Source: Devosia sp. (GTDB lineage: Bacteria > Pseudomonadota > Alphaproteobacteria > Rhizobiales > Devosiaceae). Taken from it: 64,000 nucleotides of DNA. The notes under the pieces are model-generated. The model was not told where the DNA came from and searched no databases. It saw nothing but the letters and a program-made list of their open reading frames with translations. The position numbers and the translations under genes are program-made. The DNA lies in assembly GCA_041916695.1 (NCBI GenBank), contig JAYRZA010000013.1, positions 34,990 to 98,989 of the forward strand. Direction: 5' to 3'. Position 1 is the first letter of the stretch, and every line of letters begins with the position of its first letter. Below are positions 1 to 34,525 of this stretch, piece by piece.

Positions 1-1270
1 AACTCGGTCCAGGCGCTCACCAGCGCGACCAGATCGCCACCCTCGAAATTGGTAACGCCGTTGTCACCGATGATGACGTTGTTGCCATCTCCGGCGGTCA
101 GCCTGTCGCTGCCCGAGCCGCCGAGCAGGATGTGATCGCCATCGACGATGACGATCTCGTCGTCGCCATAGTCGGCCTCGGCCATTGTCTGGACGATCTG
201 CCGCACGCCATCGCTGGTGTAGAGCGCAAGGCCGTTGTCACCGAGGATAACGCTGGTGCCGGTGCCGGCGGTGATGCTGTCGCCACCATAGCCGCCGAAG
301 ACGATGTTCTTCCCGGCTCCGGCGCGAATGGTGTCCCTGGCTCCCTTGTTGGTTGCCGTGGATTCCACCCGGATGACGATGCCGGCGGCGAAGAAGGCCG
401 CGCCGTTGTCGCCCAGCAGCGTGTCAGCCTCGTCACCGGACGTGATGTCGTCCTCGCCGGAGCCGCCGATGACGATATTGCGGCCGGCGCTGGTGGTGAT
501 GGTGTCCTTGCCGCCATTGTCGACAAAGGTGCTGATGATCACCTCGACGCGCGCCTCGTCATCGAACATGACCAGGCCGTTGTCGCCGAGCACGACATCG
601 CCGGCATTGCCCGGGTCGACACCGGGATCCCCGGCGACGACGTCGAGAATGTCGTCGTCGCTGCCGCCGACGACGATGTTGCGCAGGTTGCCCAGGACCG
701 GCGCGCCGATGAAGGTGGTGATGTGGTCCTTGCCACCAAAGCCCGGATCGATGCTCTCGATCTGGGTTGGCTTGCCGTCCTCGAAGTCGGCAACGCCGTT
801 GTCGCCGAACAGGATGTCCTGACCACCGAGGCCCTTGATGGTGTCTGCGCCGGTACCGCCGAAGACGATATTGCGGCCTTCCTTGGCGTCGATCTCGTCA
901 TCGCCGCCCACCGAGGTATTGGTGGTCTTGACCTGGACGACCTCGCGGAAGGTCATCATGTCGAGGACGCCTTCCAGCATATCCTCCTGGCTGATGATGC
1001 CGTGGTCGCCGATGATGACGTCGATGTTGGCGCCGCCGGTGATGGTGTCGGCGCCCGCTGTGTCGGCGTCGTCGTCGATGATCACCGTACGCAGCAGGTA
1101 GTCGACGTCGAAGGCGCTGTCGCCGATGATCCAGTTGGTGCCGACACCGCCGGTGATGAGATCGTCACCGGTGCCGCCGGCCATGAAGCTGGTCGACTGT
1201 CCGCCGAGAAGGTCATCGACGCCGGCACCGCCGTCGACGACGACGATGCCCTTCGCTCCGGACGCATCCA
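1..1270 (-). repeat. RTX/beta-roll-like Gly-Asp nonapeptide repeats (GGxGxDxUx) inside the giant ORF; the block continues past the window edge
   Basis: Motifs read directly: LLGGSGSDRLT (97-129), FGGYGGDSIT (270-297), VIGGSGEDDIT (440-472), FGGTGADTIK (833-865), MAGGTGDDLIT (1152-1184), VDGGAGVDDLLGG (~1200-1245). Each is followed about 10-15 aa later by a GDNG/GDxG turn. Confidence 0.8.
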
Positions 1271-4200
1271 GCACATCGTTGCCGTAGATGTCGAAGCGGT
1301 AGGCCGACCCATCGGGCGTCAGGGGCACCGAGTTGTAGCGCAGGCCGTTCGCCGACGTATCGCCGAACAGGACCACCGGGCCGAGGCTGTCGAGTACTGT
1401 CAGACGGTCCCCGACAATGCCGCCCGCGTCAATCTCGGGCCCGCTCAGTGCGCGGTTGCCGCCGCCATGCACCACGGTGAGGGTGGTGGCCAGGGTGCCG
1501 TCGATCTCGAAGGTATCGTTGCCCTCGCCCAGCAGGACCTCGACGACGCCGAAGTTGGTGTAGGTGATGCCGCGGTCGAAGTCCTTGAAGACGTTGTTGC
1601 CCAGGTTCGCGGTCAACTGTCCGCCCGGCATGTTGAGGCCGGTAATGCGGGTTTCGGTCAGCAGCCCGGTGGTGTCGGCCTGCACCGTGTCGGAGAACAC
1701 GTTGAGCCGGTCGAGGTCGTCTTCTGCATCCGTGTCGACGTCGCGGATCACTGCAGGGTTGAGTTCGCCCGGCAGGACTACCGCACGCGTGATCGAGCGA
1801 TCGCTCGGACCCACACCACCTTCGACAAAAAGCGGTCCCTGGATGGAAACGAGATCGTGCGGCTGCTGCGAGAACACGCGCTGGTTCTGGGTCGAATTCG
1901 ACCCGGTCGCGTCATACTCCAGCGTCACGGTGACCGGCGTCGACCAGTTGGCACTGGTGAAGACGACGTAGAAACCGCTGGCGTCCTGAAGCACGCTGCC
2001 GCCGACGACTGGCTTGGCCTTGCCATCGACGACGATGTTGACCCTGACGTCCGCCGTCGGCAATGCCGTCAGCACCATCTGGTAGGTGTCGGTCTGGCCT
2101 GCCTGGGAGACGCTGGTGAAGCCGTCGCTCTCGATGATTTCCACACCGGGCGTGGCGGCGTCGATGACTTCGACCTGCACGAGTTCGCTGTCCACCGCAG
2201 AGTATAGTCCACCCGTCGACGACACGTCATGCAGGATCGGAGAGACGTAGCGGTTGGCGATGCCATCATTGACCGATGACACTTGCACGGTCTGCGCGTC
2301 GTCCCACTTGAAGACCCCTGCCCCCGCGACTGCGCCGAACTTCAGTTCCGTCGTCGAAAGCGTCAGCCCCGTCCCGGGCTGCAGGGTGACCGTGACGGTC
2401 TCGCCGGGCGCCGGAGCACGACTCAGAGAGACTTCGTAGCTGTCGGACGCGCCGTTCTCGAAGACCTGCGTGTTGCCCGCGCTCTCCGTGATGACCACGG
2501 CCGGCTTGTCGTCGTCACCGACGGTAACCAGTACGTTACCGATATCGAAGCCCTGGTAGGCCGGATCGGTGGTCACGACGGAGTGGGATACGGCAACAAC
2601 GGCCTTCCCCTCCTCGCCACTGTCCGACTCTGCCTTCACGAAGATCGTCTGGCCGGCAGCGTAGTTCGCCTGCGTGAACTCAACCGTCACCGCGGCGGCA
2701 AAGTTGACCCCGTCGAGGGAGACGAGAACCGTCTTGCCCGGGCCGCCCGGGCGCGACCGCGTGAGGGTCGAGGCCTGCGCGGCAGACACCGTGACGAAGG
2801 CCGAGGCGCCTACCGCCGGAGCATCCGGCAGGGTCAGCTTGTAGCTGTCGATCGACAGCGGGTCGTCTTCCTGCACCGACAATCCGTCGCCGGTGTCCAG
2901 AGAGGCACCGGTCGTGGCGCCCGTGGCGGTCAAGTCGAGCCCCCTGACGAACATGCCATTGTAGCGCAGATCGCCGCTCTGAACGGTGTGGCTGATCGCG
3001 CCCTGGCTGCCGTCATTGTCGGCAACCACCGTCTTGGTCACATCGCCGGCAATGTTGAAGGTGTCAGAACCCAGCCCGCCGATGATGGTGGTCACGACGT
3101 CGGCGGCGGTGGACAACACGTAGAACGTGTCGTCGCCCTCGAGACCGTCCACCTCCATCGCCTCGGCGTTGGACATGCGGACCGTCAGGCCGGCGCCATA
3201 TACGCCGTCCTTGGTGACTACGAACACATCGGCGAACTCGGTGCCCAGAACGACGATCTTGTCGAAGCCGGCACCGCCATCGATGTCGACGGGAGCGTTG
3301 ACGTTGTACTGGATCAGGTCGTCGCCGCCACCGCCATTCAGCTTGACCTTGGTGCCGTCGCCGAGGGCGAACGCCCGGATGACGAATTCGTCATTGTCGT
3401 CCTCGCCCTCGAGACGCAGGTCGGCATGGTTGGAGTAGACGACGAAGCGGTCTTCGCCCGAACCGCCGTAGAGCACCGCCGGCAGGCTGATGCCCAGCGA
3501 CAGGAAGCCGAACGACACCGGGATGGTTTCGAAGCGGTCGGCAACCGACTCGATGGCGAAGACGCCCTCGGTCGCGGCATCGCGCGAGGTCGCGAACAGC
3601 TGGCCAACCTGGAAGAAGTCATCTCCCTGGCCACCGTCGACCGTCATGATCGCCGAGTTGTCGTCGAAGTAGAAGCTGTCGTCGCCGCCGAGGCCTTCGA
3701 CGATGACGCGGCCATTGACCGCGGAGGTATAGTTGATGCGTTCGAACGCGTCGAGATAGCCGCCTGCGCCATCCTCACGCAGATTGGCGATCATTCCGCT
3801 GCGCATCAGGAAGGTGTCGGCGAGCGCCGTGCCCTCGACGGTGAGGACATCGAGCGCGTCGAGGCTGCTGCCGGTATCGACGACGTTGATGACGTAGTCG
3901 GACGTTGCGCCCTCGATGTTGATGATGGTGTGGTCGCTGCCGTCCTGGCCATCAATGGTCAGTTCGTCACGCAGTTCCCTGCCCTGCCCGTCCTTGGCAA
4001 AGCCCGCGACAATGACGCCCTGATAGGTGTTCATCGTGGGCAGCTTGTCGACGGTCACGACGTCGTCGCCGCCTCCACCATTGACAAAGGTATTGCCCTG
4101 TAGCGCGACCACATCGATCAGCACCGTATCGGCCTGGCCGCCGCCATTCAGCGTTATGACCGGGGCGTGGAGGGTGCCGAGGAGCTCGGCATTTCCGCCC

Positions 4201-7200
4201 AACGCATCGGGATCGAGTACCGCAGTCGCCTGGTAGTCGATTGCCATCAGGATACTCACGTCGGAGTCGATGACCGCACCGTGCTCGATCAAAAGGTCGT
4301 CGCCGGCAAGCAGGCGAATCTGCCCGGTGGCCTCGAGGGTAACGCCCGACAGCACGGTGATATCGTCCGGCAGGTCGTCGTCACCCAAGCCACTCAGTTC
4401 GTTGTCGTCTTCGGCCCAGAACTCCAGGTCGCCTGCATGGGCGATGCTGCTTTCCTTGATCAGGATGGGGCTGGAGGCCATGACGGACACTTTTCCGCCG
4501 GCGCTGACGCCCGACGACGAAGCACGCACGTCGCCGACGATCAGTCCGCCCAGATTGAGAATGTAAGTGTTCCCCGCCTGTGCGGTCGCCTCCAGGTTGC
4601 CGACCTCGGTCGTGACCCGACGAGAACTCGTGCCGACGTTCTGCGACGCCGACAGGTAGGTCATGCGCGAGACGATGTTGCGCTGGTCTGCCTCGTTGAG
4701 GGCGCGGGCATTCAGGATGCTGCCGCTGAGCGCAACGAGGAAGGCCTGCGGGCGGAAATCGTTGGCACCATCCACAGTCGGCGTCCCGACCTGGTCGAGG
4801 TTGAGATCGCCGACGGTCTCGACGAGGAAGATGCTCTCGATGTCGGTGAAGGCCCGGACCTTGCCATCTCCGGAGGCCGACGAGTTGACTTCCAGTTCGT
4901 TGTTGGACCGCCCGATCGCCGTCTTGGCGTAGAGGCTGATGCTGCGTCCGATGATGTCGGCGCCGGCCTGCGGGGGCACCGGATCCCCTGGATTGACCAC
5001 CCCGACATATTCGGCGTCGAGGAGGGAGCCGAGTATCGCCTCGAGGTAGACATCCCCAGCAGTAGAGGCGACGCGGCGGACATACATGTCCCCTTCGGTC
5101 TCCCTGAGAGCGACATCGCCGCCGGCATTGGCAACAATGGTGCCCAGAGTGGATGGATCGGTGGGGTCGTTCGAGTAGGTACCGGTAACGTTGATCTCGA
5201 GCAGATCGGTTGCGGACCCGATGGACCCACCAGCGCTGAGGGAGATGAAGTTGGCGCGGATCTTTTCGGAGTCGGTGCCGAGAGCATCGAGTATCGAGCC
5301 TAGGGTCGCATCCAGGAAGACGTCGCCGGAGCGCGAGTAGATCGAGTCGACGAGCAGATCGCTGCTCGGCGCGGTCAGTCGAATGTCGTCGGTGGCCCGG
5401 GCCACTAGGCTGCCGCCAGCGAACATGGACAGGGTGATGGCCCTGTTCTCGCCGATGCCCGCATCGCCGGCCTCAAGCACAATGTCAGAGCCCGTGATGT
5501 TGATGCCGTTCCCGGCCAGACCGTTGACGAGTGCGCCCTTTGCCTTGAGGCGCACGGCTTCGCCGCTGCCGGCGGCGATGGTTCCGAGTTGCATACCCCC
5601 AGTGGTGCCGAGATAGATCGACCCGCCGGCCGTCGCGTCGATCAGTCCCGCCGTTACGACATCGACGTCGTCACGGCGGCTGACGATGATCTTGGTGATT
5701 GTGACGCCGACCGCCGTTGGGTCGAGCTCGACATTGGCCACGTCGACGACGCGGTTGAACTCGGTGGCAAAAGTCTGTCCGTCGATGAGATGCACGGTAT
5801 CGCCCGAAACGGAAGCGACTGTGAAGTAGCGCCCCTCCTCGGTCTTGTTGGTCGTCGCGCCGGCAATGTAGATGATGTCACCATCACCAAAGCCCGCCCA
5901 GCCCCCGGTCGTGGTGATGACGCCGTGGTTCCCGACATTGGTGAACGTCGCGACGATCCCCTGCCTCAGGACGCTCGCGTAGACGATGTCCTGGCGCTCC
6001 GCCGCTGCGATCGCGACGCGCTCGTCGTCCGTCAGGTTGGGCACGGTCTGGCCGTTACCCAGGTCGATGATCAGTTCCCGATCAACCTTGCCGATATTGG
6101 CGGATGTAATCAGCTCAATCGATGACGCATTGATGTTGCTGGCTTCGATGACCGTCTCCGTCGAGGTCACCGGCTTCATGACGCCCGAACCGAAGGCGAA
6201 AAGCAGTTCCTGTTCCGTCCAGACCTTGATCGAAGACGTCAGCTCGGAGGCAACGCTGCCGATCGCGAACAGATACTTCATCTGCGTCGGCGAGCTGTTG
6301 ACGGCGTTCGCAGGAATCGTCCGATCGTAGTGTATGGCGCTTTCGTTCAGGCGTCCGAACATGAGTTCGAGATCGTCAGCATTCCGGGCGTCGATGTTGG
6401 CGGCGACATACGCGGCCACTAACAGGTCGAGGTCGTTCACCAATGGGGTAGCGGCCTGACTGTTGGCGGCCAGCGCATCGGCGACGACCTCAGCCTCGAC
6501 CTCGGCCATTTCAGCGTCCGACAGTGGGTGGCCGAGCAAGGTCTCCTGCGCGATGACGGCGGCGTCCAGGTTCGCCGCCAGATAGTCCGCGACAAACAGG
6601 TCGAGCTCGTTGCGCAGGGGCGTGGCAAGCAAGGCATTGGCGGCCAGCGCGTCGGCAGTGAGAAGTTGCGTGAGGGCCTCGATTTCGAACTGGCTCATGA
6701 CCACCGGCTGTGCGGTCCGGTATGCCCAGTACTGGGCGTAAGCCACGTCGATGTTCAGGCGCTGCACCTCGCCGTAGCCGGCGTAGTCCGCCGCGAGGTC
6801 GAGGTACTGCGCCGTCCGGGACGCCTCCAGTGCCGCGATCGCGTCTGCCGCAGCCTGACCACCACCGTAGAATGCCGTGTAGTAGGCGACCTCCTGGGCC
6901 GTCAGGTGCACCGAGGTGCCGTCGAACTGGTTCTTCAGCGTCCAGTAGGTCTGGTACTCTTGGCGCTTCCAGTTCTCATAGCCGGTGAGGGTGTCGGCAA
7001 TCTTTTGCTGAGCGCCCGATCCGTCGGTCAGCTGCAGGTCGCTCCACAGGCCGGCCAGCAGCTCCTCGCGGACGCGGAGGTCCTTTTGCACGGTGAAGTC
7101 GGCATCGACCAGCGATCCGGCATCCACCTTGAGATAGACGTCGCCCAGTGTGGTGGCGAAGACCAGTCGCATGTCCCCGGCGGTTTCGCGCACCGAGATG

Positions 7201-19200: not shown

Positions 19201-22200
19201 CTGGCGCCGGCGTCGATTGTGCGGGACGGTTGACCCAGATTGTCGATGAACGCTTCGGCGCTACCATTGACCTTGTTGCTGGCGAGAATGATGGCGGCGG
19301 ACTTGCCTTCGGCCGCGAACTCGCTCGCCACGGCGAAGTCGTTCTCCCACTCCATGGCCGCCTCGGCGCCATTGGTGGCGTCGATTGAAACGGCATTCAC
19401 CGCCTGCACGAGAATGTCGCCGCCAACCACGACCGACGAGTCCTTCACGTAGGCGCTGGTGTTGACGCCCACGTCGGCCTCGAGCACGGCATCGGTGACC
19501 TGATCGGTCCCGATCAGGGTCTCGACCGCGTCAAAGAGCAGGTTCAGCGGCTTGTAGCCAACGGCGTTGAACGCCAGGACCACGACGTTGACGCTTCCCG
19601 ACCCGCCCGCCTGACTCAGCGCGACAGCCTCGATCGACGATGTGCTCTCCGCCGAGACGTCCAGAGAACCGGCAGAAACGGTGCTGTCGTCGATGAATGC
19701 GGCTGCGCCGCCCTGGACGTTGTTGGTGACGGAGATGATGCCGTTCGCATCCCAAGAGTCGATGGTGCTGGTGTCGCTGGCACGGATCGCTCCCGTCTGC
19801 TCCGCGCGAACCTCGACTATGCCCGCCGCTGTCACCTCGGCCCCGCCCGAAATCTCGGCAGTCACGACGCTGTTGACCGTATTCCGGTCGAATATGCCGG
19901 CCGTCGCGGTCGCGTTGCCCATGACCTGCTTGGCGGTCATGCCGATGGCCAGCAGCCCCGACTTGATGATCATCGGGGGAATCAAGCTCTCCGTCGTCAG
20001 CCGCTTCCATAGGCCGAGGTCTGAATAGTCGGCGGTACCGAGATCGACGGCGTCGACAGGCAGCGATCCGTCCGGGCCCATCCACTGGTAGACCACGAGC
20101 GGGTTGTCCTCATCCTCCAGTTCAGGAATGCGTACCTTGTCGCCGAACTGCAGGAGGGCGCTGCCGGATGAACTGGTGTAGTCGTAGTCGTTGATGACGG
20201 TGCCGATGATCTTGTCGGCAATGTTGACGCCGTTCGTGTTGTCGAGTTCCGACGACACTCCCATGCCGGTCACGGCTTCGATCTCGGCGTCGTTCTGTGC
20301 ATCGACGGTGACGCTGTCGGCGTCGACCGTGCCTCCGGAAATCGCGGCGACCGCCGAACTGCTGATCTTGTTGCCGGAGATGACCGCGGCATAGACGCCG
20401 GTGAGGCCGTCGAACAAGGCCGTGATCGAGCCCGAGGCCTCGTTGTCTATGGTCGACGTGATGATCGACGTATTGAGGGCGGAAAGATCCACAGCGCCGC
20501 CAGCCACAATATCGCTGTCGGTAATCGAGGCCTCGACCGTGAAGGGGTTCTCGTGGCGCAACGCGACGTCGCCCTGCCCCGCCGGCTCGGAGATGTTGTG
20601 CACGATGTCGCCGAGAAGTGTCTCGAGCGTGTTGAACAGGAGGTTGCCCCGCTCCCAGCCGATCGTGTTGTTGGCAATCTGGAACGCCGCGGCCCCCCCG
20701 CCGGTGGCCGCGGCGGTGGTGCTGCTTTCGGCCAGGATCCGGGCGTCGTTTGTCGCCGACAGGGTGACGTCGGTGTCCGCCTCAACCGTGCTGTCGACGA
20801 TGCTCGCAGACGTCTGGCCCTGGATCAGGTTGGTCGCGATGATCGCGCTGCGCGCGCCGGTGCTTTCGCCGCTGGTCACGAACGTCAGGAACGACATGAA
20901 TTTGCCCGTGAAGGCTTTCTTCAGCAGCGCGTCCTGATTGAAGGGGCCGCCGCCCTGCGCTTCGTTGTAGACGTCCGAAAGCGCCCCGATATAGGCGGTC
21001 GATTCAGCTGTCACGACCACCGAATCCGCGGTCAGATCCGCATCGCGAACGAAGGCCTCGGCGCCGCCGCGAATATCGTTGAAGACCAGCGACATCCCCA
21101 TGGTGGCGCCGCTGGACGAACGCAGGTTGGTGCCCTCGAGAAGAGCAGTATAGTCGAGTTCGGCCTTCCAGAAGGCGACGTCGCCGAAATCCTGAGCGGC
21201 CAGGTCGACCGTGCCGGAAACGGTCGGTCCCATGTAGGTGTAGACGCTGCCCGGAGTACCGAGGACCTCCTCCCACTCGTCCTCATCCGCGAAGACGGTG
21301 CTGGCCGCCTCCCGGTCGAAATTTATCGTCCGGGGGCCGGTGCCGGCGTACCTATAGAGTTTGCCGGTCTCGCCACCACGCGCCAGCAGAACGATGTCGC
21401 CGGTGTCGACGGTGATCGTCTCGCTCTTGCCGGCCGTCCACAGGTCGTAGTCGAGGCCGACCTTCGCGCCGAAGGTCAGGCCGGTCGGCGCACCCTGGGT
21501 CAACCGGACGTCGGCCTCCATCTGCTCGAATTCACGGGCCGCCGCGTGCAGGCCACCGTCGCTTGCCGCCACGGCGCTCGAAACGATCTTGACGTTGGAC
21601 TGGATGGTCTGCTCGTCGGAAGCGGACACATCGACGGCACCGCCCACCAGCATCGACTTGGCCGCATTCGATGCCCCGCCGTCGATCGTGGCCCGCGCCG
21701 AACGGCTCATCTGGTTGCTGGCGAGAACGGCGCTCACCGCCTTGGCGCTGATCCCGAGGGTTCCGGTTGAATCGACGCGGCTGGTGTTGGAGACCGTGGT
21801 ATTGGCGATCCCCCGCGCCGTTGCCGAGACCAGGACGGCACCACCGATGATCAGCGTCGTGTCGTCGACGCTGGCGACGATGTCGGAGGGGTGCTCGTCG
21901 GTCCAGAAGTCGGTCCCGAGCAGCGCATCGAACGTGGCGGCGGCGATATTGGTGACGGTGAATCCGGCGATGTTCAGCGCTGCGAGACCACTGACCGCCG
22001 TTGCCGAACCGAGGCCGATCGGCGAGCCGACACCGCGGCCATCGATGTTGAGGAAGATGGTGGCATCGAGCGTGCTGTCGTCGGTGGCCGTGACGATCAG
22101 GTCCGACGATGGCCCGAGCGTGTCCACCGTTCCGCCAGACACCGTAGCCGAGGTGCCGCCATTGAGCACGTTGGCCACCAGAACACCGGCTGCGACTGTG

Positions 22201-24620
22201 GGTCCATCGACGACGGTTCCCTCGGGCGGGGGTGCGTCGCCCGCCGGGGGAATGCTGTTGGCATAGGCGGTCAGGCGAACGGCGTTCGCGGCGGCGACGC
22301 TGACGGTGCCGTCGCTCTCGACGGCGGTCAGCGAAAGCGCTGCCCCGATAGTACGGTTGACGTCGTTGATGGCCGTTGCCCGGGCAATCTGGTAGCCGGG
22401 CGAATTGGCATTAGGCTCGCCATCGTGGTTGGGCGAGAATGGCAGCGCATAGGCGGTGAAGGCAGACGAATCCGCCGAGCTCAGGGATAGCCCGCCAACT
22501 CCGACGTCGATGGTGCTGCGATCGATGCCAGCGAGGGTGCTCCCGGTCGCGGTGTTCTTCGCCTCGAGGCTTACGGCGCGATAGGCGGTATTGGTTTCGG
22601 CTTCGACCTCCAGCCCGCGCGCGATTACCGTGACGCCGCGGATTTGCGCGGTGGCTGCCTCGCTGAGCGTGTTGCCGGCCGAGCCGACGCTTGCTGACAG
22701 AATCTCGTTGCTGACCCGGCCATAGTTCTGGGCCTGCAGGCGCACGAAACCGTCGGCATCGATTACAGTGGGATGCGCTGCATTGACGGCGCCCGCATTC
22801 GCCGCACCGACCAGGACCTCGGTCGTCCGGTTCACCGACAGGTTCGAATCGAGAGCGGAGAACACCGCGACATTCGCCAGCCCGCCGATCAGGGGCTGGC
22901 TCTCGTCGGTCACGAGGCGGACTTCGACGCGGCTTCTATCCTCTGCCGCGAGCAGCAGGGTACCGCTGGTTCCGTTCTGGACGAGATCGGCGTCGTCGTC
23001 GACTGTCACCTTGGTGGTGTTGGTCGCAACGATGTTGGACTGCATCCGCGAGGCGTCGAAGCTGACGATATTCTTGGCGGCCGCAAACAGGTCCTCAGAA
23101 CTGATGCTGCCTTTGGAGAGCCCGTCGTAGAGCGTCTGCAGGTCGGGAAGGCCGGACGTGTTCACGTCGGCGTCGAAAAGACCCAGGATGGCTGGCAGAG
23201 GCACCTTGTTGAGGGCGATATCGACATCGGCGGCGGTGGTGGCCCTGACGGTGATGTCCGTGCCGGTGATCTTCCCAGTTGACGCGATGGAGACCGTCGA
23301 CGACGTCGTCGGGGAAACGCTGAGCGTGCGCAAGGCCGCATTGGCGTCGCCGCGCATGGTCATCCGGTTGACGGCAAGCGTGTTGAGATTGACCGAGTCG
23401 GCGGTCAGCGAACCCGCGAGCGCGATGCTCGCCGTGGCGGTCGGACTGACGTTGACGCTGCTGGCAGAACCGGAAATCGGGGTATCGGTGAATGCCAGAC
23501 CCTTGAGGTGAATGGAACCGGCCGAAATCACACCGGAGGTACCGATCTCGACGAGCTCTGCACTAAGGCCGAGCGAGCCGTTCAGGCTCAGCGAGGTATT
23601 CGCAACGACCTTGTCGCCGCCGTCCACCATCAGCGAGAACGATGCATGCGATGGCAGTGACGCGATCGTCGTGATGCCGCTGGCCGGACCGAGATAGAGC
23701 CAGACCGGGCTATTTGCGACAGTGTCGTAGTTGGTGGCGTTGATCACGACCCGGAGGTTGCCACCGGAGGCCTGAATGGTGACATCCTGGCCCGCGGCGG
23801 CAGCCGAGCGGTTGACGACCTGGACGCCGGCGCCGACGCTGAACGGCTCCATGTTCTCGAAGGCATAGTGCAGACCGCTGGACAGCGTCACCTGGCCGGA
23901 TCCCCCTGCTCCGAGCGAGGCGGTCGACGCGCTGAGACCGCCGGCATAGGCGACCGTGTCAGTGCCCCCGAGCCCTCCGTCGATGACGCCGGATACCCCA
24001 CCGCTCAGGCCAATGGTGAATGTGTCGGTGTTGCCGTGGCCACCGCGGAGGTTCTCCACATCGGAGAACGTGACGGTGCCGACAGTGCCCGCGTTCAGTC
24101 CACTGACTGTCCAGCTTGCGGCAGAAGAGGAATCGAAGACCACCCGGTCGGAACCGTCGCCACCGTCGAACGATATCGCCGGAAGGACCGTGGCGCCGAA
24201 CGAATCGACGTCGATGGTCAGAGTGTCATTGCCGGCATTGCCGGCAATGGCGATCGAGGTGATGGTGTCGGCGTCGCCGAAAGCCAGCACGCGGCCGCCG
24301 TCTGTCTGATCGATGATCTGGACACGCTTGACGGTTACCGTCTCGGTCTCGGTGCGAACAATGTCGTCGAACAGGCGAACCAGCAACTGGTGCTCGGCAT
24401 CCGGAAGGTCGGTGCTCAGAGAAACGTTGAGGTCGGCGTTGAGCAGCAGGCGTGGCTCGAGGGGATCGAAGATCAGCCTGACCCTGTCCTCGAGCTCGCG
24501 ACGAACCCGCGATCCCCCAGACAGCCTGGAAAGCTGACGACGCAGCGTCGACACGAGCTTCTCGCGGCGCGGTGAGGCGGGGGGGCCGAAAATGCCCTCG
24601 GACTTGAACGGATATGCCAC
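1..24620 (-). CDS. Giant repetitive adhesin/S-layer-like protein with RTX-type (GGxGxD) C-terminal region. Partial: the start is in the window and the 3' end lies beyond the left edge (at least 8,206 codons visible)
   Basis: My translation of the minus strand reads without a stop from GTG at 24620 (GGGGG run 6-10 nt upstream, ...tagGGGGGtgaaaGTG) down to the codon at 3-5. None of the >=60-aa minus-strand ORFs in the track between 1 and 24690 lies in this frame (all end at coordinates = 0 or 1 mod 3; this frame is 2 mod 3), as expected if the frame has no stop. The N-terminus reads VAYPFKSEGIFGPPASPRREKLVSTLRRQLSRLSGGSRVRRELEDRVRLIFDPLEPRLLLNADL. The left end reads ...LLGGSGSDRLTAGDGNNVIIGDNGVTNFEGGDLVALVSAWTE. 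The track omits it because no in-window stop exists. Confidence 0.85.
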   Translation of the reverse strand, partial: MAYPFKSEGIFGPPASPRREKLVSTLRRQLSRLSGGSRVRRELEDRVRLIFDPLEPRLLLNADLNVSLSTDLPDAEHQLLVRLFDDIVRTETETVTVKRVQIIDQTDGGRVLAFGDADTITSIAIAGNAGNDTLTIDVDSFGATVLPAISFDGGDGSDRVVFDSSSAASWTVSGLNAGTVGTVTFSDVENLRGGHGNTDTFTIGLSGGVSGVIDGGLGGTDTVAYAGGLSASTASLGAGGSGQVTLSSGLHYAFENMEPFSVGAGVQVVNRSAAAAGQDVTIQASGGNLRVVINATNYDTVANSPVWLYLGPASGITTIASLPSHASFSLMVDGGDKVVANTSLSLNGSLGLSAELVEIGTSGVISAGSIHLKGLAFTDTPISGSASSVNVSPTATASIALAGSLTADSVNLNTLAVNRMTMRGDANAALRTLSVSPTTSSTVSIASTGKITGTDITVRATTAADVDIALNKVPLPAILGLFDADVNTSGLPDLQTLYDGLSKGSISSEDLFAAAKNIVSFDASRMQSNIVATNTTKVTVDDDADLVQNGTSGTLLLAAEDRSRVEVRLVTDESQPLIGGLANVAVFSALDSNLSVNRTTEVLVGAANAGAVNAAHPTVIDADGFVRLQAQNYGRVSNEILSASVGSAGNTLSEAATAQIRGVTVIARGLEVEAETNTAYRAVSLEAKNTATGSTLAGIDRSTIDVGVGGLSLSSADSSAFTAYALPFSPNHDGEPNANSPGYQIARATAINDVNRTIGAALSLTAVESDGTVSVAAANAVRLTAYANSIPPAGDAPPPEGTVVDGPTVAAGVLVANVLNGGTSATVSGGTVDTLGPSSDLIVTATDDSTLDATIFLNIDGRGVGSPIGLGSATAVSGLAALNIAGFTVTNIAAATFDALLGTDFWTDEHPSDIVASVDDTTLIIGGAVLVSATARGIANTTVSNTSRVDSTGTLGISAKAVSAVLASNQMSRSARATIDGGASNAAKSMLVGGAVDVSASDEQTIQSNVKIVSSAVAASDGGLHAAAREFEQMEADVRLTQGAPTGLTFGAKVGLDYDLWTAGKSETITVDTGDIVLLARGGETGKLYRYAGTGPRTINFDREAASTVFADEDEWEEVLGTPGSVYTYMGPTVSGTVDLAAQDFGDVAFWKAELDYTALLEGTNLRSSSGATMGMSLVFNDIRGGAEAFVRDADLTADSVVVTAESTAYIGALSDVYNEAQGGGPFNQDALLKKAFTGKFMSFLTFVTSGESTGARSAIIATNLIQGQTSASIVDSTVEADTDVTLSATNDARILAESSTTAAATGGGAAAFQIANNTIGWERGNLLFNTLETLLGDIVHNISEPAGQGDVALRHENPFTVEASITDSDIVAGGAVDLSALNTSIITSTIDNEASGSITALFDGLTGVYAAVISGNKISSSAVAAISGGTVDADSVTVDAQNDAEIEAVTGMGVSSELDNTNGVNIADKIIGTVINDYDYTSSSGSALLQFGDKVRIPELEDEDNPLVVYQWMGPDGSLPVDAVDLGTADYSDLGLWKRLTTESLIPPMIIKSGLLAIGMTAKQVMGNATATAGIFDRNTVNSVVTAEISGGAEVTAAGIVEVRAEQTGAIRASDTSTIDSWDANGIISVTNNVQGGAAAFIDDSTVSAGSLDVSAESTSSIEAVALSQAGGSGSVNVVVLAFNAVGYKPLNLLFDAVETLIGTDQVTDAVLEADVGVNTSAYVKDSSVVVGGDILVQAVNAVSIDATNGAEAAMEWENDFAVASEFAAEGKSAAIILASNKVNGSAEAFIDNLGQPSRTIDAGASVEVTASNDSWLSADISVVSTTVPENTLDAVQQLLGNAADRLGLTGYDYTTQSGVRTIKEGDVVRVGLSTASVELDMAGQHLPDEVVDIVRGDLIKSADGKYYRYNGPSSPPDDPDEMPKYQLTAFSEIDLAQLDSLGEAVWVEISASDLANGKAGVLYRYIGNADLGPVNLSGLDYTNENLWQQLQTADFEDLFFPSFGNLFTTNARSIGLAITFNDVRGDATASLANVTVEADGDVLVSADDTAAISSRLASTVDASGGSGINGSGDVVSFNGQIATNVVLGKAAALIDNADITSGSDVEVSAVNDARVDARLYSSGVSGATAYGITLAFNSVGWDAQNLLFNTVDTIIGANYIADDGFGGNVGADASARVTDSTIAAAGALSVTADNIAQVNSTVSNTANTVTAALYGATGASYGILISGNKVSGKAIATIEDNTSAPLNDIVADGVFVAADDASMIYSNVKLVAESSVTNDAGLAVIQETVNDLLDADYDTVPDQNGLKTVNLVFGDRVRLDNGYAAASVDASRGLDPLNVAIVEGDIIQLPPGEDEDSGPKYLYVGTGDYVIADVETEDFDNASLWQLIGGAAGKVYTYMGTAASGLQTDLLTTNFDDTNFWKADPVSSITEQGLNLSTSPSKAVGALVVLNDVRGGADAGITNSEVDGGAGGVSVSASEEAGISATADSAVTANGGSSIDSDAFSPPPPPDGEATEDVLIAINGTIATNLVQSSAIAEIELSRIETTGSVAVTADNTSLVAATTLSTAYTSGGDTVGVTMAFNSVGWQPQNVLFNGIDAILGDDLLADEAFGGRNEARTEAKVTSSTIIADGDLMVSSTNSAAIEAEVSNEATSQSTSISGTDGKALGFLIASNKVASGAYATIDNSAAGTAVIEAGNVSVTADDEGTIVSSGNILALAEIKNDYGISAAANVIKSLLDNYQFTTKSGSQLVRSGDLVFIGDDYAVEEAQGKLYRYSGPDATIDLGGLITQDAAWSVYDVDTIVDFINDNIPSLAGGSATGVGAMAILNLVEGNSIARVSSAELTLTGNLEIAATETGTIEADLVARVEVTGGTTSKSDSIAVNAVIATNNVVGTTSALLEDSAVLSVVDVDVSATNDSSITATLDADTISRQTSVGIVLAFNSVGVQGQNFLFNTADALVGTDLVSTLSGAPPLSASASIEASDITASGALTVEAHSTQLINAEISNYVQTIRAGFDGGNAISVGLVVALNRVNADASATIADSGSIHVTGAITVDADNSADITSVVIQPVISLALNLGSGQSKGISVSLVVSRNVVDADIEASIDNVDDISAASVSISADQSATIDSTAAAAAISAAVTGGGAVGVSGGGVVSFNTIRGNVTATIADSVVAAAAGEVLVHAGNSAQIASTVLAAAISFQGSFSSSATGVAIGAALAFNYIGYAGSILDKGAADPLTTSASIRNATVTGKKVKVESKSEASIDGFVAAAAVAVGASVGNATQVSVGGAAVQNRIAADTTAIIDGGDTPGHSTLTIGDDGLEVGAESDNEVSAKAYAASVAASFSGGNSVDIAVGLGLALNDIKGTTEAKLEDSTVLKATNSTGGTSLTATDDSTISAEAAAVAFSAAVSIGSSVAVSAGGALAFNDIGVDVKSQVIDSTVTSGGAVTVSATETSSISAVIVAASFAAAIGPNNGVAVGFGVSVAENIIGASGGGQSVVLAKISGSDITAAGEVKVRAFSEETISATVVAASIAIGIGGSVGVALGGAGAGTHNAIRIATSAIIDGSTSDVSAGSIRVEAEDRSAITVLTGAAAVAVSIGSVGVSVALGIAIALNEIDSDVTAKVDDASSLNTTAGNVALNAKRNATITAEAYAASLAVGIGLSAGVAVSGAGAAARNSITGDVIASIVDTGVTSFGDTTLKAESTSTISATIGAVAVAVGGGAAGVGVGIGIAVALNRVGDWSGDSDDYQALVDDEDPFDSVAAATGTAKVSATISGSDVTAGGDVKVEAVSAQTITATVVAAAGAVAAGVAGVAVAGAGVYVENLIGVSTLAQVSGVSGDLSTLRATDVKITASDTSIITALAGAAALTAGFGGAGVGVSVGIAVAKNTIANTVAASAAYADIAVTDLVVRPTSGVIPPAATPGTIEIRATSAATIDATAAAAAIAISAGVAGVSVAGGGAVALNMIIGDSNLDDTVGTTTAQASNSILDSGANITVAATSNATIEAEILAVAGSAAFGGVGVAASIGVGIARNYIGYDLSGTYKPLLTEASLRNTKVDSYGNLAISANSTETVTARVIAGSVAVAGGYVGVAVAGAGASTMNRAGVVTRAFIDDDGTQIRAADIEIAANDTMSLTGYAGAASIAGAAGAFGGTLTIAVTEAENAARSSVSAYVDNATNVMVTGDVVKTPDQYIYTTQVQPNPVYHYGTGKISITSSQATTLAATSELASVSVNLSIGPTLAGGGAKSLNSVLTSSDAYIEDSELAVNGDVVVDAVNTITATATNRALTVAAGLFSMAVAGLDAQAAIDARANARIDRTTLGARDVDIHSRVTPSASGSTQAATGGAIGVGVSKANTVVTVSSTAGATGSLLTVEDLAIRAEESRNGDTAYASAEGIVGALIGTDATVTNATHNGTVAALLGLGTVVVAGRTVTVAARGDSKQRALSDSAAYGLVAVGATIANASSLSTTTANIASDVTVWAGDLEVSASGNDDNYGSVSPGAGGLVGIAAGEVDTTANVTSEAAIGSGASILLLRNTAAGLLGRLDLTSEQTTKANTSIQTSAYGAISGSGTESDNVVNASSTARIGDSAEIIAADVSAASVNNFIKDNIGTNMDGTAGGAITVAGIDSVTDLNLTTLTVVENGASVMLNGTSADNGGIDLSAFNNIVFHETVAFKGGGVGSGIGASSTLDAKDVVARVQIGTSPATTDANVLLRSTGEIALRANSAADVRVAVSVDNYGGVTVSVADAVVEVNPTNDIIVGRHATLYALRDVLMLAGMDEDFNYDEYVIRTYADTLAGSLIPIDSLKVDSLLFITNHITLMQTAAVETGGNVMLLADHEALAEIVSQGKTRNWATGASDGLNKLLGGAETYYSHGDSQAESIVHVDGTIRTGLNRFVNIVIEDIIADPPAQPGGAPTNVQIVGTIPTTVNVTLAVATLQSNYRDELEKAYIQRDRYENDATLQAFWNSEIERLARELEFLGLAELQTEPSTGDLIVIPLEKTVLTVVVDPIYAAAGYIYVHADVLEGTGTLDAPGNVTVTIDNQTKAFLEVRGITIPANNGGVFFNGFQNEVSKADTSAEANAAVVAANADNVEAKNDYVDDFGAIEHLYVAGFTNLTITPTTGTAVAARIDIKNTWIRQDVEDPWPGIVVSGEIDAITADVLIDARLGSGDITINAEISSASLEVLTKGFVVIDLPPGSIYESGGSPFSDWRSISTSGGVGDVTSAQAVTDLLDDAPKPGLSANRISINAEYVNLNGALTSGRKDYVLDIGAATINEINTIESKPHALKRYLLTTASTDSFNAFWDAKEKRIVIEEFRVPGGSITITGKLLNTGNGSIEALGGYVHVTVVNRSDWDVLIERIDVTDRGAGTIILNDTAKGTNGGYVQTWYQTNPDGTVTVRTSSWELVTTPSTEPAAVGNRPFSKDYVLVAGSMITNPPTFNGAAAFNEVFSYQPQEGWRYGYTVGQITQTITTTVHTTSKWLGIDAFAADPGPITKGPIVEVIGQPTLIDNSIYYYRDASDVANSTDPAHTYLSWDYALATPRTYTRDLPTVSHWYGTKDYRKEVKVVEKTQENGTHTIEADRPVAIKFTGYDEARVEIDSRGAGDVLVKGGILNDTGLTKISSNSEIKSTNATSVVQGVRIELAARDDIGSDGVIGAATTWGTLQDILPLRIDLVDFYPADFRGAGSIAPTFAVVSASSSNGGVYLREISGDMQIGTVAAARGNVVLVAQSGILAAETSPGVFATGLVTGNSIDLAADRSTSLPNGALGGIGQGAARPLLINSGVLPEHRVSLLAVRDISVRETAGDMRLVFATTLGDVYLKVDAGSLVDADFTVQKDLRVREELLAGLWSDLQLTDGSGAQQKIADTLTGYENWKRQEYQTYWTLKNQFDGTSVHLTAQEVAYYTAFYGGGQAAADAIAALEASRTAQYLDLAADYAGYGEVQRLNIDVAYAQYWAYRTAQPVVMSQFEIEALTQLLTADALAANALLATPLRNELDLFVADYLAANLDAAVIAQETLLGHPLSDAEMAEVEAEVVADALAANSQAATPLVNDLDLLVAAYVAANIDARNADDLELMFGRLNESAIHYDRTIPANAVNSSPTQMKYLFAIGSVASELTSSIKVWTEQELLFAFGSGVMKPVTSTETVIEASNINASSIELITSANIGKVDRELIIDLGNGQTVPNLTDDERVAIAAAERQDIVYASVLRQGIVATFTNVGNHGVITTTGGWAGFGDGDIIYIAGATTNKTEEGRYFTVASVSGDTVHLIDGQTFATEFNRVVDVANVELDPTAVGVTITKIIVSRRDDVDVVTAGLIDATAGGSIYLGTTGGMQLGTIAAGSGEAVRLKAKGALVNGLAGNGINITGSDIVLEAGDAGIGENRAITLSMFAGGSLVARATDDIRLTAPSSDLLVDSIYSRSGDVFLDATLGSILDALGTDSEKIRANFISLSAGGSIGSATDLLEINVTGTYSNDPTDPSTLGTIVANAGGDVALRETEGDMYVRRVASTAGDVYLEAILGSLLDAEYVGVVNPGDPVPPQAGADIIGRSISLYAKTAIGRSNNELEVNSSASGDGKVRAFTDIESIFLVETVGDLNLDQVGTPTVDGANDFRPQAFLVALSGSILNARALNEADQRNIVSRMTYLSASQNVGTSSRRVTTEVGNLEATAQAGNTYILNLGGLIVGDVRASSSGVSAGGKVSVMASSPILIKESSIAHAGDLEFWAEDDNELSGLGDDDLPDDITVLSGVTLEATGQIRLLAGDDLLIEHGAVIDSDVSILMAIDYQATAVLDPDALGGNAELLGTLHAPVITLNGGGQADTVLIDVVALQGNTFVNGGGGDDVVTVDKLPTMNTYQGVIVAGFAKDGQGRELRDELTIDGQDGSDHTIINIEGATSDYVINVVDTGSSLDALDVLTVEGTALADTFLMRSGMIANLREDGAGGYLDAFERINYTSAVNGRVIVEGLGGDDSFYFDDNSAIMTVDGGQGDDFFQVGQLFATSRDAATEGVFAIESVADRFETIPVSFGFLSLGISLPAVLYGGSGEDRFVVYSNHADLRLEGEDDNDEFVIRAFALGDGTKVKLNGGGGDDLIQYNVNAPVDIDGGAGFDKIVVLGTEFADVFVVTKDGVYGAGLTVRMSNAEAMEVDGLEGDDTFYVLSTAADVVTTIIGGLGSDTFNIAGDVTKTVVADNDGSQGAISHTVQSGDLRYNGMFVRGLDLTATGATTGASLDTGDGLSVQEDDPLSIDSYKLTLPDAPAVGASAFVTVSAAQASTLTRSRPGGPGKTVLVSLDGVNFAAAVTVEFTQANYAAGQTIFVKAESDSGEEGKAVVAVSHSVVTTDPAYQGFDIGNVLVTVGDDDKPAVVITESAGNTQVFENGASDSYEVSLSRAPAPGETVTVTLQPGTGLTLSTTELKFGAVAGAGVFKWDDAQTVQVSSVNDGIANRYVSPILHDVSSTGGLYSAVDSELVQVEVIDAATPGVEIIESDGFTSVSQAGQTDTYQMVLTALPTADVRVNIVVDGKAKPVVGGSVLQDASGFYVVFTSANWSTPVTVTLEYDATGSNSTQNQRVFSQQPHDLVSIQGPLFVEGGVGPSDRSITRAVVLPGELNPAVIRDVDTDAEDDLDRLNVFSDTVQADTTGLLTETRITGLNMPGGQLTANLGNNVFKDFDRGITYTNFGVVEVLLGEGNDTFEIDGTLATTLTVVHGGGNRALSGPEIDAGGIVGDRLTVLDSLGPVVLFGDTSANGLRYNSVPLTPDGSAYRFDIYGNDVLDASGAKGIVVVDGGAGVDDLLGGQSTSFMAGGTGDDLITGGVGTNWIIGDSAFDVDYLLRTVIIDDDADTAGADTITGGANIDVIIGDHGIISQEDMLEGVLDMMTFREVVQVKTTNTSVGGDDEIDAKEGRNIVFGGTGADTIKGLGGQDILFGDNGVADFEDGKPTQIESIDPGFGGKDHITTFIGAPVLGNLRNIVVGGSDDDILDVVAGDPGVDPGNAGDVVLGDNGLVMFDDEARVEVIISTFVDNGGKDTITTSAGRNIVIGGSGEDDITSGDEADTLLGDNGAAFFAAGIVIRVESTATNKGARDTIRAGAGKNIVFGGYGGDSITAGTGTSVILGDNGLALYTSDGVRQIVQTMAEADYGDDEIVIVDGDHILLGGSGSDRLTAGDGNNVIIGDNGVTNFEGGDLVALVSAWTE
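1900..3050 (-). other. Three beta-sandwich (Calx-beta/cadherin-like) domain-like segments of the giant ORF
   Basis: Segments such as PAVVITESAGNTQVFENGASDSYEVSLSRAPAPGETVTVTLQPG, PGVEIIESDGFTSVSQAGQTDTYQMVLTALPTADVRVNIVVDG and WSTPVTVTLEYDA. This alternating-strand pattern is typical of Ig-like adhesin domains. The family assignment is by eye only. Confidence 0.45.
3050..4090 (-). repeat. Dispersed GGxGxD(D/T)F calcium-binding-like motifs (spacing about 25-45 aa) inside the giant ORF
   Basis: VNGGGGDDVVTV (4050-4086), IDGQDGSDHTII, EGLGGDDSFYF, VDGGQGDDFFQV, LYGGSGEDRFVV, LNGGGGDDLIQY, IDGGAGFDKIVV, GLEGDDTFYV, IIGGLGSDTFNI (3050-3086). A similar pair sits near the N-terminus (FDGGDGSDRVVF 24135-24170; IDGGLGGTDTVAY 23957-23990). 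Confidence 0.7.
6180..7030 (-). other. Non-repetitive, apparently alpha-helical island within the giant ORF, containing a tandem ~175-nt duplication
   Basis: The sequence is rich in A/L/E/Q/Y/W (QKIADTLTGYENWKRQEYQTYWTLKNQ...YAQYWAYRTAQ...). Two copies are readable: ADALAANALLATPLRNELDLFVADYLAANLDAAV (6557-6656) and ADALAANSQAATPLVNDLDLLVAAYVAANIDARN (6381-6482). Confidence 0.6.
11000..15650 (-). repeat. About two dozen tandem, diverged ~180-200-nt (60-66 aa) Gly/Ala/Val/Ser/Thr-rich coding repeats (beta-helix-like) in the giant ORF
   Basis: A recurrent signature of hydrophobic G/A/V run + N + x + I/V recurs at about 190-nt spacing. Examples: GIGIAVALNRVGD (~13420), GAGAAARNSITGDV (~13600), ALGIAIALNEIDSDV (~13780), GAGAGTHNAIRIATSA (~13960), GFGVSVAENIIG (~14170), GGALAFNDIGVDV (~14340), GLGLALNDIKG (~14540), GGAAVQNRIAADT (~14740), IGAALAFNYIGY (~14960), GGVVSFNTIRGNV (~15150), SLVVSRNVVDADI (~15330), GLVVALNRVNADA (~15520). 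The same pattern runs back to ~11000. Confidence 0.7.
15650..22100 (-). repeat. Six diverged super-modules of 1.08-1.36 kb (about 360-450 aa) in the giant ORF
   Basis: A conserved anchor LAFNSVGW(x)xQNxLFNxxD recurs on the plus strand as ttgaacag...acggagttgaaSgcc at 15751-15795, 16831-16875, 18169-18213, 19531-19575 and 20632-20690, with a degenerate copy at ~21927. Each module also carries one or two G-K-x-Y-R/T-Y-x-G motifs (16282-16304, 17415-17438, 18713-18736, 18882-18905, 21229-21251, 21343-21366), followed by D-F/Y-x-D/N-xx-W. Confidence 0.7.
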
Positions 24621-30212: not shown

Positions 30213-30237
30213 TGCCATCGACAGCGTGGAGCCGCCG

Positions 30238-34519: not shown

Positions 34520-34525
34520 TCCAGA

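Follow-up and report, generated by a model that had tools for sequence, protein, structure and literature searches.

A very large LEPR-XLL, RTX-type gene in Devosia, its SapC and radical-SAM neighbours, and a candidate SecA-like export set beside its relatives

At the left edge of a 64,000-nucleotide stretch of Devosia sp. DNA (assembly GCA_041916695.1, contig JAYRZA010000013.1, positions 34,990 to 98,989 of the forward strand; hereafter the window) lies a single, very long minus-strand gene, which we call the giant, and upstream of it stand genes for a SapC-family protein, a radical-SAM (radical S-adenosylmethionine) enzyme and a 284-amino-acid (aa) protein (Table 1). Translation of the reverse complement of bases 1-24620 gives 8,206 stop-free codons from GTG 24620 to base 3, and the frame is still open at the window's left edge. 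A preliminary description, made from the letters alone, had reported this single open reading frame (ORF) of at least 24.6 kb, and our retranslation agrees with it. Local base composition predicts stops at 0.0257 per codon, or one every ~39 codons, and the probability of an open run of this length is then ~10^-92.7; in the other 39 kb of the window the longest open frame has 701 codons. The GC content at the first, second and third codon positions (GC1, GC2 and GC3) is 62, 48 and 83%, a clear coding signature against a genome of 65% GC. The plus-strand ORFs over the same span have GC1 of 0.80-0.86 and GC3 of 0.59-0.65, mirroring the true frame, and thus are its antisense shadows, as had been described; the giant itself was missing from the ORF track used at that time, since the ORF lister leaves out frames that reach past the end of the sequence. 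On its upstream side the frame is closed by an in-frame TAG at 24630-24632, which leaves GTG 24620 or 24626 as the start. The former is supported by AGGGGG, a Shine-Dalgarno-like sequence 6-7 nt upstream, and by an MA(Y/F)PF start at the same position in six of eight homologues.

An ORF of this size could be an artefact of repeats wrongly put together in the assembly, or belong to a decaying gene left open by chance in a GC-rich genome. High-GC DNA does yield long spurious ORFs (the plus-strand shadows reach 1,051 aa), and the giant frame is interrupted in several relatives. This reading is effectively refuted by the chance expectation and the GC3 value given above, by the DNA of the gene and by its relatives. 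The longest exact DNA repeat within the gene is 17 bp, and the closest internal similarity amounts to 77% over 67-80 bp; Tandem Repeats Finder reported no repeats over the gene, and its protein repeats share at most about 50% mutual identity. The earlier worry that repeats of this size are prone to collapse is thus not borne out. A Devosia metagenome-assembled genome (MAG; locus L008) is collinear with window positions 34579-13984 at 79.5% nucleotide identity, and its orthologous frame has no stop in any of the 3,548 codons available; the encoded protein is 86.4% identical to the giant. The two genes differ at 10.7, 6.2 and 40.4% of first, second and third codon positions, with 1,201 synonymous versus 482 non-synonymous codon changes (2.5:1) and only whole-codon indels. 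Given the lack of long DNA repeats and the open collinear orthologue, assembly collapse or mis-assembly was rejected; the gene is genuine and intact, and purifying selection acts on it.

An N-terminal profile scan with one genome per species found 48 relatives, all Hyphomicrobiales, and in 38 of them no stop interrupts the frame within the locus, which covers about 3,500 codons. Most of the interrupted frames come from 'MFD' MAGs, and their breaks are suggestive of assembly error. In one cultured strain with a short-read assembly, Devosia aurantiaca H239 (L019, NZ_JAALFG010000003.1), the giant frame is broken at codon 1744. This interruption contrasts with most other non-nanopore relatives; the gene could be a pseudogene or be split, or the assembly could be wrong here.

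One relative, L003, is the only one with a visible 3´ end. It is collinear with aa 4373-8206 of the giant at 43-70% identity, with frame breaks typical of long-read assemblies, and its gene runs about 4.0 kb beyond the equivalent of the window edge, through classical nonapeptides (GGLGNDTIFGD, GGTGDDQLSGGNGYDTVNGGIG) and into a non-repeat tail of ~190 aa. Because this collinear relative extends that far, the giant probably has about 9,500 aa in full, with ~1,340 residues beyond the window and a mass of ~1 MDa. It is among the largest bacterial proteins. Scans with exact 40-mers and with the exact SapC protein, meant to extend the window to the left, gave no match, and the only match to a neighbouring aminotransferase was a 6-kb Logan contig from SRR26835462. 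The visible part is supported as an all-beta or repetitive, acidic, Cys-free protein without a Sec signal, and no transmembrane segments were found in it.

The giant begins with a short basic leader, and the maximum Kyte-Doolittle value of any 19-mer in the first 100 aa is 0.53. The leader ends in an invariant FDPLEPRLLLNAD motif, which in the giant is part of a match to the NCBIfam model LEPR-XLL (NF012209); the relatives match this model at 26-29 bits. PLEPRxLL and D63 are invariant in alignments of homologues, and the LEPR-XLL motif is conserved in all relatives, including a distant one from Methylosinus that is described below. All visible N-termini, again including that of Methylosinus, consist of a basic leader followed by (R/K)L(I/V)FD(P/T)LEPR(L/V)LLN(A/S)D. 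The ~150 residues behind the motif (aa 68-215) are family-defining, and served to find the 48 relatives. The preliminary description had correctly noted a charged N-terminus without a Sec-type core, but what it took for the mere absence of a signal peptide is a leader that is conserved and defines the family. Its statement that the protein could be assigned to no described family does not stand either, as both NF012209 and a second NCBIfam model, NF012206, are matched above their cutoffs. Domain searches and structure prediction on tiles of the protein, which had been suggested as a check, indeed placed it: the family was given by NCBIfam, and an RTX block by Pfam and AlphaFold2. The LEPR-XLL family is catalogued as an NCBIfam annotation label but is unstudied, and the window ORF is a new member; we found no experimental or comparative study of the family in the literature, where the term occurs in just two papers, in passing both times.

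Next comes a long stalk of repeats. An in-protein hidden Markov model gives the repeat core AxNxVxGxxxAxIxDSxVxAxGxVxVxAxNxSxIxAxV, and autocorrelation reveals a super-repeat of ~446 aa within aa 750-3000. Four 1,000-aa tiles match LktA_tand_53 (NF012206, 'tandem repeat-containing filamentous protein') at 80-225 bits (top score 224.6, cutoff 50), with up to 12 stretches in each. An AlphaFold2 model of aa 3361-3790, for which a pseudo-alignment of eight non-overlapping paralogous segments of the same protein was used, reached a mean confidence (pLDDT) of 81 and a predicted template-modelling score (pTM) of 0.83; DSSP assigns to each repeat one hairpin of two ~25-residue antiparallel strands. 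The tract is therefore predicted to be a stack of long antiparallel hairpins. A Foldseek search of this model against the PDB returned no solved counterpart (best E 0.25, TM score at most 0.23). We considered a parallel beta-helix, and found it unsupported: the modelled strands are antiparallel, and the matches to Ag43, HpmA, FHA and RsaA have E values of at least 0.25 and TM scores of at most 0.23. A relationship to S-layer proteins of the RsaA type was also considered, but the only Foldseek match, with E 0.25 and a TM score of 0.05, is not evidence for one. No Ig-like, cadherin or VCBS family of Pfam was matched at E≤0.1 in any tile. Going by the model, the description of the stalk as an all-beta fibre is supported and that as a beta-helix is not. 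Of the mosaic layout proposed earlier, the leader, the GGxGxD motifs, the Trp/Tyr-rich region, the island rich in helix formers and the RTX repeats all stood, and the beta-helix-like tracts gave way to predicted antiparallel hairpins.

Between the stalk and the C-terminal block lie ~3,000 residues of unique or weakly repeated domains (aa ~4650-7700). For the first of these regions (aa ~4650-5650) there was no family or PDB match. The composition of aa ~5800-6100 suggests that this island may be helical. The most conserved stretch of the whole protein, with 70-76% identity to L003 and L004, is found at aa ~6985-7324. For the Pfam search the giant was cut into ten overlapping 1,000-aa tiles, and the one family matched above cutoff is HemolysinCabind (PF00353), in the last tile, over four stretches at 55.6 bits (cutoff 23); weak matches to AAA_5, FlgD_tudor and SH3_14 were under cutoff, and were discarded. 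RTX-type motifs lie at aa 7797-8167, and the frame runs on beyond the window. Within it, the GGxGxD motifs are mostly placed inside ~60-aa super-repeats, and not in tight nonapeptide arrays. An AlphaFold2 model of aa 7707-8206 from a 35-sequence alignment is a short-strand beta-roll, with pLDDT above 90 over segment residues 190-500. Foldseek matched it to RTX blocks IV-V of CyaA (6sus; E 8e-4, prob 1.00), and also to the Ca-dependent beta-helix of the Marinomonas giant adhesin (3p4g). The C-terminal block is thus a true RTX beta-roll, and for this reason secretion of the giant is well supported. PDB sequence searches with both halves of the giant, with SapC and with the 284-aa protein gave nothing usable.

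The 48 relatives come from Devosia (90-96% identity, in keeping with a Devosia-like soil or water bacterium as the host), Aquamicrobium, Mesorhizobium, Aminobacter and Methylobacterium/Methylorubrum, and further from Bosea, Xanthobacteraceae, Bradyrhizobium, Rhodoplanes and Lichenihabitans. Among 1.84 billion representative sequences, an exhaustive profile search with the extended N-terminal domain (MAYPF...) found 104 clusters at E≤1e-30, the longest member having 7,804 aa and others reaching 5,000 aa or more, and LEPR relatives of 7,902, 8,847 and 9,289 aa were observed elsewhere. A protein search with the N-terminus had given only eight fragment matches, from which rarity might be inferred; this was rejected, as the search returned nothing longer than ~1,000 aa and the genome scan gave 48 loci. 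From Vibrio, a LEPR-XLL protein of ~8,000 aa that carries RTX and serralysin domains at its C-terminus has been reported (PMC10868602).

The genes upstream of the giant are conserved among the relatives. A SapC homologue lies directly upstream of the giant in 46 of the 48; of the remaining two loci, one reaches just 903 bp upstream. In 40 relatives the radical-SAM gene is found upstream of SapC. The radical-SAM protein and the 284-aa protein are less readily placed (Table 1). The latter, encoded by the first gene of the trio, is 65-79% identical to its Devosia counterparts and about 30% identical to a '265-aa unknown' of other relatives. Most relatives outside Devosia add an O-methyltransferase, a kinase-like protein, a Trp-halogenase-like flavoprotein and two further unknowns. 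Neighbourhoods with SapC and halogenase genes were described by Iyer et al. (2010; PMC2938197), who predicted SapC to be an unknown enzyme and made no link to giant proteins. In the 114-bp gap between SapC and the giant we noticed a GC-rich hairpin, CGCCGGG-caag-CCCGGCG, followed by a weak terminator-like stem and a T-rich tail (24671-24712, minus strand), which could be an attenuator or processing site between the two genes.

The clearest indication of how such proteins may be exported came from a distant relative. The plasmid collection held no close relative of the giant, only a LEPR giant of Methylosinus on plasmid pMSC49a (NZ_AP022333.1), encoded by a single gene of ~8,850 aa that passes NF012209. 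Six same-strand genes follow it, for a DUF3467 protein, a GAF-HlyD protein, a 715-aa fusion, a 638-aa truncated SecA, a short HlyD protein and TolC. The fusion joins a PqqD/RRE domain, an intramembrane HExxH metalloprotease (152 bits to a daptide-protease model) and HlyD. The SecA-like protein matches SecA_DEAD at 347 bits, has the preprotein cross-linking domain (PPXD) and the P-loop, and covers positions ~20-492 of the 814 of the SecA model. TolC scores 290 bits against a cutoff of 225, and the set contains no ATP-binding cassette (ABC) transporter. In RefSeq, the ~660-aa truncated SecA is named 'prepilin peptidase' in Methylosinus (174172-176088 of the record), Bradyrhizobium, Mesorhizobium, Rhabdaerophilum and Xanthobacteraceae. 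Because Pfam SecA_DEAD scores 347 bits, this label is wrong, and it is a mis-annotation that masks the family. Divergently upstream of the Methylosinus giant (L056, 14569-19592) are genes for a CusA/CzcA-type RND pump, an RND adaptor and a small hypothetical protein.

This set is widespread beside the giants. At least one of its genes lies within 10 kb of the giant in 37 of the 48 relatives, spanning at least ten Hyphomicrobiales genera, with TolC in some; DUF3467 alone is that close in 35. The set is divergent and upstream in most relatives, upstream on the same strand in L028 and L031, and downstream on the same strand in pMSC49a. In the cultured Aminobacter sp. Piv2-1 a complete two-operon locus is visible, where the fusion protein has eight transmembrane-like segments and a HEAGH motif, and the SecA paralogue retains the DEAD motif. 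The association was also examined from the other side, starting from SecA-like genes in genomes chosen independently of the giant, with four look-ups in which the set stood beside a giant. The set is immediately preceded by a gene of 7,902 aa in Aquabacter and by one of 9,289 aa in L060 (ENA ERZ26962017, a 4.98-Mb contig). In L069 a gene upstream of it spans at least 1,649 codons, and SapC follows the SecA-like gene in L060 and L070. A metagenome scan with the SecA-like protein gave mostly short contigs plus canonical SecA loci. The contigs keep the core order GAF-HlyD, RRE-protease-HlyD, SecA-like, short HlyD; one long contig has a large upstream gene, and another has TolC-like and SapC genes downstream. 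None of this arrangement was seen at the canonical SecA loci, which served as controls. The C-termini of the set-attached giants are mutually unrelated, and two lack RTX. We found no description of this combination of SecA-like, HlyD and RRE-protease genes in the literature.

Two observations on L060 stand apart. The C-terminus of its giant (~4900-5400 of the locus) has RTX repeats and then a HEIGHVIGLED zinc-metalloprotease-like motif, which recalls the Vibrio architecture of RTX plus serralysin. Directly after the run of giant, DUF3467, GAF-HlyD, 715-aa protein, SecA-like and SapC genes lies an extracellular contractile injection cluster (13129-22004), with Pvc16_N, sheath, tube, VgrG-like, PAAR and gp25 genes.

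We suggest, with moderate confidence, that the giant is an exported, Ca-binding LEPR-XLL fibre that uses a route defined by its leader and a SecA-like ATPase, with SapC and the radical-SAM enzyme as accessories. In this model, the protein would be synthesised in the cytoplasm without a Sec signal, where low Ca2+ would keep the chain unfolded, and would be threaded through an envelope-spanning conduit of HlyD/TolC type. The chain would fold outside, where Ca2+ bound by the RTX and GGxGxD blocks would serve as a ratchet, and the folded product would be a long fibre, on the surface or extracellular, that resembles an adhesin or a matrix component. The recognition element would be the LEPR leader, to which the PqqD/RRE domain of the HExxH metalloprotease-HlyD fusion probably binds, and which this fusion may also cleave. 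The truncated SecA-like ATPase would be the motor in place of an ABC transporter, working with DUF3467, the GAF-HlyD adaptor, the short HlyD protein and an OmpA-like outer membrane protein (OMP) or TolC. SapC and the radical-SAM enzyme may be maturation or export accessories that act on or with the giant. Since none of the export genes lies within 39 kb upstream, those of this genome would have to be located past the left edge or elsewhere. A further-reaching proposal, which we put forward tentatively, is that LEPR-XLL giants are the substrates of a new alphaproteobacterial secretion system, composed of a SecY-independent truncated SecA, three HlyD adaptors, a SecB-sized DUF3467 protein and TolC or an OMP, in which the leader motif FDPLEPRLLLNAD is read by the PqqD/RRE-protease and SapC and the radical-SAM enzyme carry out maturation; the machinery for the window gene would again be encoded elsewhere in the genome.

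Several observations weigh against this model. No export-set genes were found in the window, none upstream of the giant in its closest Devosia relatives, L008 and L009, and none in the 6 kb downstream of the gene in L003. Linkage alone does not prove that the giant is a substrate of the SecA-like set, and recognition or cleavage of the leader and modification of the giant by SapC and the radical-SAM enzyme are putative. The giant and its closest relatives carry the classical hallmarks, RTX and a C-terminal tail, of substrates of ABC-type type I secretion systems (T1SS), so that an unlinked T1SS is a simple alternative. The predicted fold of the stalk comes from a structure model with a shallow alignment of eight paralogues. 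Finally, Iyer et al. (2010) read the SapC/halogenase neighbourhoods as small-molecule biosynthesis (PMC2938197).

In a simple competing view, an unlinked ABC/membrane fusion protein (MFP)/TolC system exports the giant, C-terminus first, by an uncleaved C-terminal signal, the leader is a retention or anchoring element and the SecA-like set serves another purpose. The export set is absent from the window, from the upstream regions of the closest Devosia relatives and from the 3´ flank of L003, and for this reason a classical T1SS remains a serious rival for this strain, although we think it less likely than the SecA-like route. It fits the RTX beta-roll, confirmed by Pfam and by the structure model, the nonapeptides and ~190-aa tail at the end of L003, the acidic, Cys-free protein without a signal peptide, and the Vibrio LEPR-XLL giant with its C-terminal RTX and serralysin domains (PMC10868602); moreover, SapC was first described in the sapCDEF type I operon of Campylobacter fetus, according to a citation in PMC2938197. 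However, no ABC, MFP or TolC gene of such a system is present in the 39-kb flank, as had already been noted for the window, or adjoins the gene in about 55 related loci, and every HlyD-type gene found in those loci belongs to the SecA-like set. Conservation is much higher in the leader than in the C-termini, two set-attached giants lack a C-terminal RTX, and the first 150 aa contain no LapG-type site. The proposal in the preliminary description of a T1SS-exported adhesin or S-layer-like fibre thus holds for a secreted fibre of RTX type, while its ABC-dependent route is an unsupported assumption, the conserved neighbours in the family being SapC, the radical-SAM enzyme and, in most relatives, the SecA-like/HlyD/TolC set without an ABC transporter.

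The gene content of the clusters also invites a reading in which the giant, though itself exported, is a mere neighbour in a conserved island, where SapC, the radical-SAM enzyme and, in relatives, the methyltransferase, halogenase-like and kinase-like proteins make a small molecule and the set exports a peptide resembling the RiPPs (ribosomally synthesized and post-translationally modified peptides). Neighbourhoods of SapC and Trp-halogenase were predicted to be secondary-metabolite clusters (Iyer et al., 2010; PMC2938197), PqqD/RRE domains and daptide-type proteases belong to RiPP systems, and radical-SAM enzymes, O-methyltransferases and halogenases are typical tailoring enzymes. We nevertheless consider this improbable. 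No small precursor-peptide gene was noticed in the clusters, and the giant is the only protein in the loci with a conserved leader-like N-terminus. SapC stands immediately upstream of the giant start in nearly all loci (46/48), and the linkage to the giant survives three gene arrangements and holds in the reciprocal look-ups.

Returning to the window, two further clusters lie upstream of the giant. The region 30226-36621 resembles an RpoE/ChrR-type photo-oxidative stress cluster; in addition to the genes in Table 1 it contains a short-chain dehydrogenase/reductase and a nucleoside hydrolase. A polysaccharide biosynthesis and export cluster (49863-62141) forms a second surface-structure locus 25 kb from the giant, and encodes, besides Wzz and a Poly_export/SLBB protein, an EPSP-synthase-family protein, a polysaccharide deacetylase, a family 4 glycosyltransferase (GT4), a Bac_transf priming transferase, a Wzy-like O-antigen ligase and a TPR-GT41 protein.

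Table 1. Segments of the giant and other annotated features of the window
Feature	Position	Strand	Details
Giant ORF	1..24620	-	8,206 codons visible, 834 kDa, isoelectric point (pI) 4.1, 0 Cys, start GTG 24620
Basic N-terminal leader, aa 1-48	24477..24620	-	pI 11.6, no hydrophobic core, begins MAYPFKSEG as in homologues
LEPR-XLL motif, aa 49-67 (RLIFDPLEPRLLLNADLNV)	24420..24476	-	NCBIfam NF012209, 27.7 bits, cutoff 17
Conserved N-terminal domain, aa 68-215	23976..24419	-	Includes lone early GGxGxD at aa 153
Repeat tract, aa 648-4494 (~3,850 residues)	11139..22679	-	44 confident ~38-aa cores, ~61 aa spacing
Unique non-repeat region, aa ~4650-5650	7671..10673	-	Trp/Tyr-enriched at ~5100-5600
Island rich in helix formers, aa ~5800-6100	6321..7223	-	46-54% A/E/L/K/R/Q/M
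Spaced (V/I)DGGxGDDxF motif block, aa 6841-7200	3021..4100	-	GGxGxD(F) motifs at 6848-7181
Beta-sandwich-like segments, aa ~7201-7706 (e.g. TVEFTQANYAAGQTIFVKAESD)	1503..3020	-	Sequence pattern only, no Pfam match
RTX-type Ca-binding beta-roll block, aa 7707-8206	3..1502	-	~60-aa super-repeats, each with GGxGxD
SapC-family gene, 260 aa	24735..25517	-	PF07277, 233.5 bits; 114 bp upstream of giant
Radical-SAM gene, 310 aa	25715..26647	-	Nearest models HxsC4, AhbD and MoaA, all far under cutoffs
284-aa unknown protein, first gene of conserved trio	26722..27576	-	No Pfam, NCBIfam or PDB match
Extracytoplasmic function (ECF) sigma factor	30226..30834	+	
ChrR-type cupin anti-sigma	30831..31475	+	
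Cyclopropane-fatty-acid synthase-like methyltransferase	33275..34519	-	
Amine oxidase	35284..36621	-	
Wzz	52222..54303		
Poly_export/SLBB	54435..55016		
tRNA-Pro (anticodon GGG)	59969..60045	-	Sole RNA gene in window by Rfam and ARAGORN

Taken alone, the window ORF is one more very large RTX-type exoprotein in a family already labelled by NCBI, which is useful and unsurprising. Its interest lies in the context of the family, that is, in the conserved leader, the partnership with SapC and the radical-SAM enzyme, and, in most genomes, the ABC-free set of SecA-like, HlyD and TolC proteins. If this set exports the giants, it would represent a new way to move unfolded megadalton proteins across two membranes. 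The model would also give a testable function to SapC, the role of which has been open since the 1998 work on the C. fetus S-layer, and a link to the unexplained truncated SecA domains of the largest known bacterial proteins. Given that the full locus occurs in cultured, genetically tractable Mesorhizobium, Aminobacter and Methylobacterium/Methylorubrum, among them Mesorhizobium loti CJ3sym, Aminobacter sp. Piv2-1 and Methylorubrum rhodesianum DSM 5687, the question is directly testable.

How does the giant compare with known systems? Within NCBIfam, the giant and its relatives pass the cutoffs of both LEPR-XLL (NF012209, LEPR-8K) and NF012206, and their size class of ~8,000 aa fits the nickname. 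Unlike the label at large, the Hyphomicrobiales subfamily to which the giant belongs has its own extended N-terminal domain (MAYPF...) and a fixed partnership with SapC and the radical-SAM enzyme. In its size, acidity, lack of Cys and of a Sec signal, long extender and RTX roll, the giant resembles LapA of Pseudomonas, MpIBP of Marinomonas primoryensis and SiiE of Salmonella, and its RTX structure model matches region IV of MpIBP (3p4g); a role as a surface fibre or adhesin is likely. However, the assignment to the LapA/SiiE class made in the preliminary description does not hold. Where SiiE and BapA-type proteins have an extender of Ig-like (BIg) domains, the giant has no Ig-like repeats but ~61-aa long-hairpin repeats without a PDB counterpart. 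In contrast to LapA-type adhesins it has no LapG dialanine site in the first 150 aa (a (T/A/P)AA(G/V) tetrapeptide occurs just once within the first 300 aa, as AAAG at 274), but does have a conserved basic LEPR leader, and no lapG- or lapD-like genes are present in the window; retention of the LapA/LapG type was therefore rejected. T1SS substrates usually also have ABC, MFP and TolC genes beside them, and no such operon lies beside the giant here or in its relatives.

The sapCDEF locus of C. fetus, which encodes SapC, the T1SS components SapD, SapE and SapF, and supports the substrate SapA, likewise places a SapC gene with a secreted surface protein and HlyD/TolC-type genes. SapA is, however, unrelated to the giant and about ten times smaller, and the ATPase in the relatives of the giant is SecA-like, not ABC. 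A different precedent is provided by the giant proteins of Omnitrophota and Actinobacteriota, which carry, in cis, SecA modules of DEAD and preprotein-binding domains, without the scaffold and wing, that were proposed to be exporters, and for which 'antiparallel beta-helix' folds were reported (West-Roberts et al., 2023, bioRxiv 10.1101/2023.11.21.568195). There the SecA domain is within the giant itself, whereas in the LEPR relatives a separate truncated SecA of ~660 aa is encoded in an operon with three HlyD-type proteins, DUF3467 and the RRE-metalloprotease. The clusters of the relatives also share the logic of the leader-dependent exporters of RiPPs and bacteriocins, such as peptidase-containing ABC transporters and the daptide protease, in combining a leader, a PqqD/RRE domain, a membrane protease and tailoring enzymes. 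In those systems the substrate is a peptide; in the LEPR clusters it would presumably be a protein of ~1 MDa, the protease is fused to HlyD, and the motor is SecA-like.

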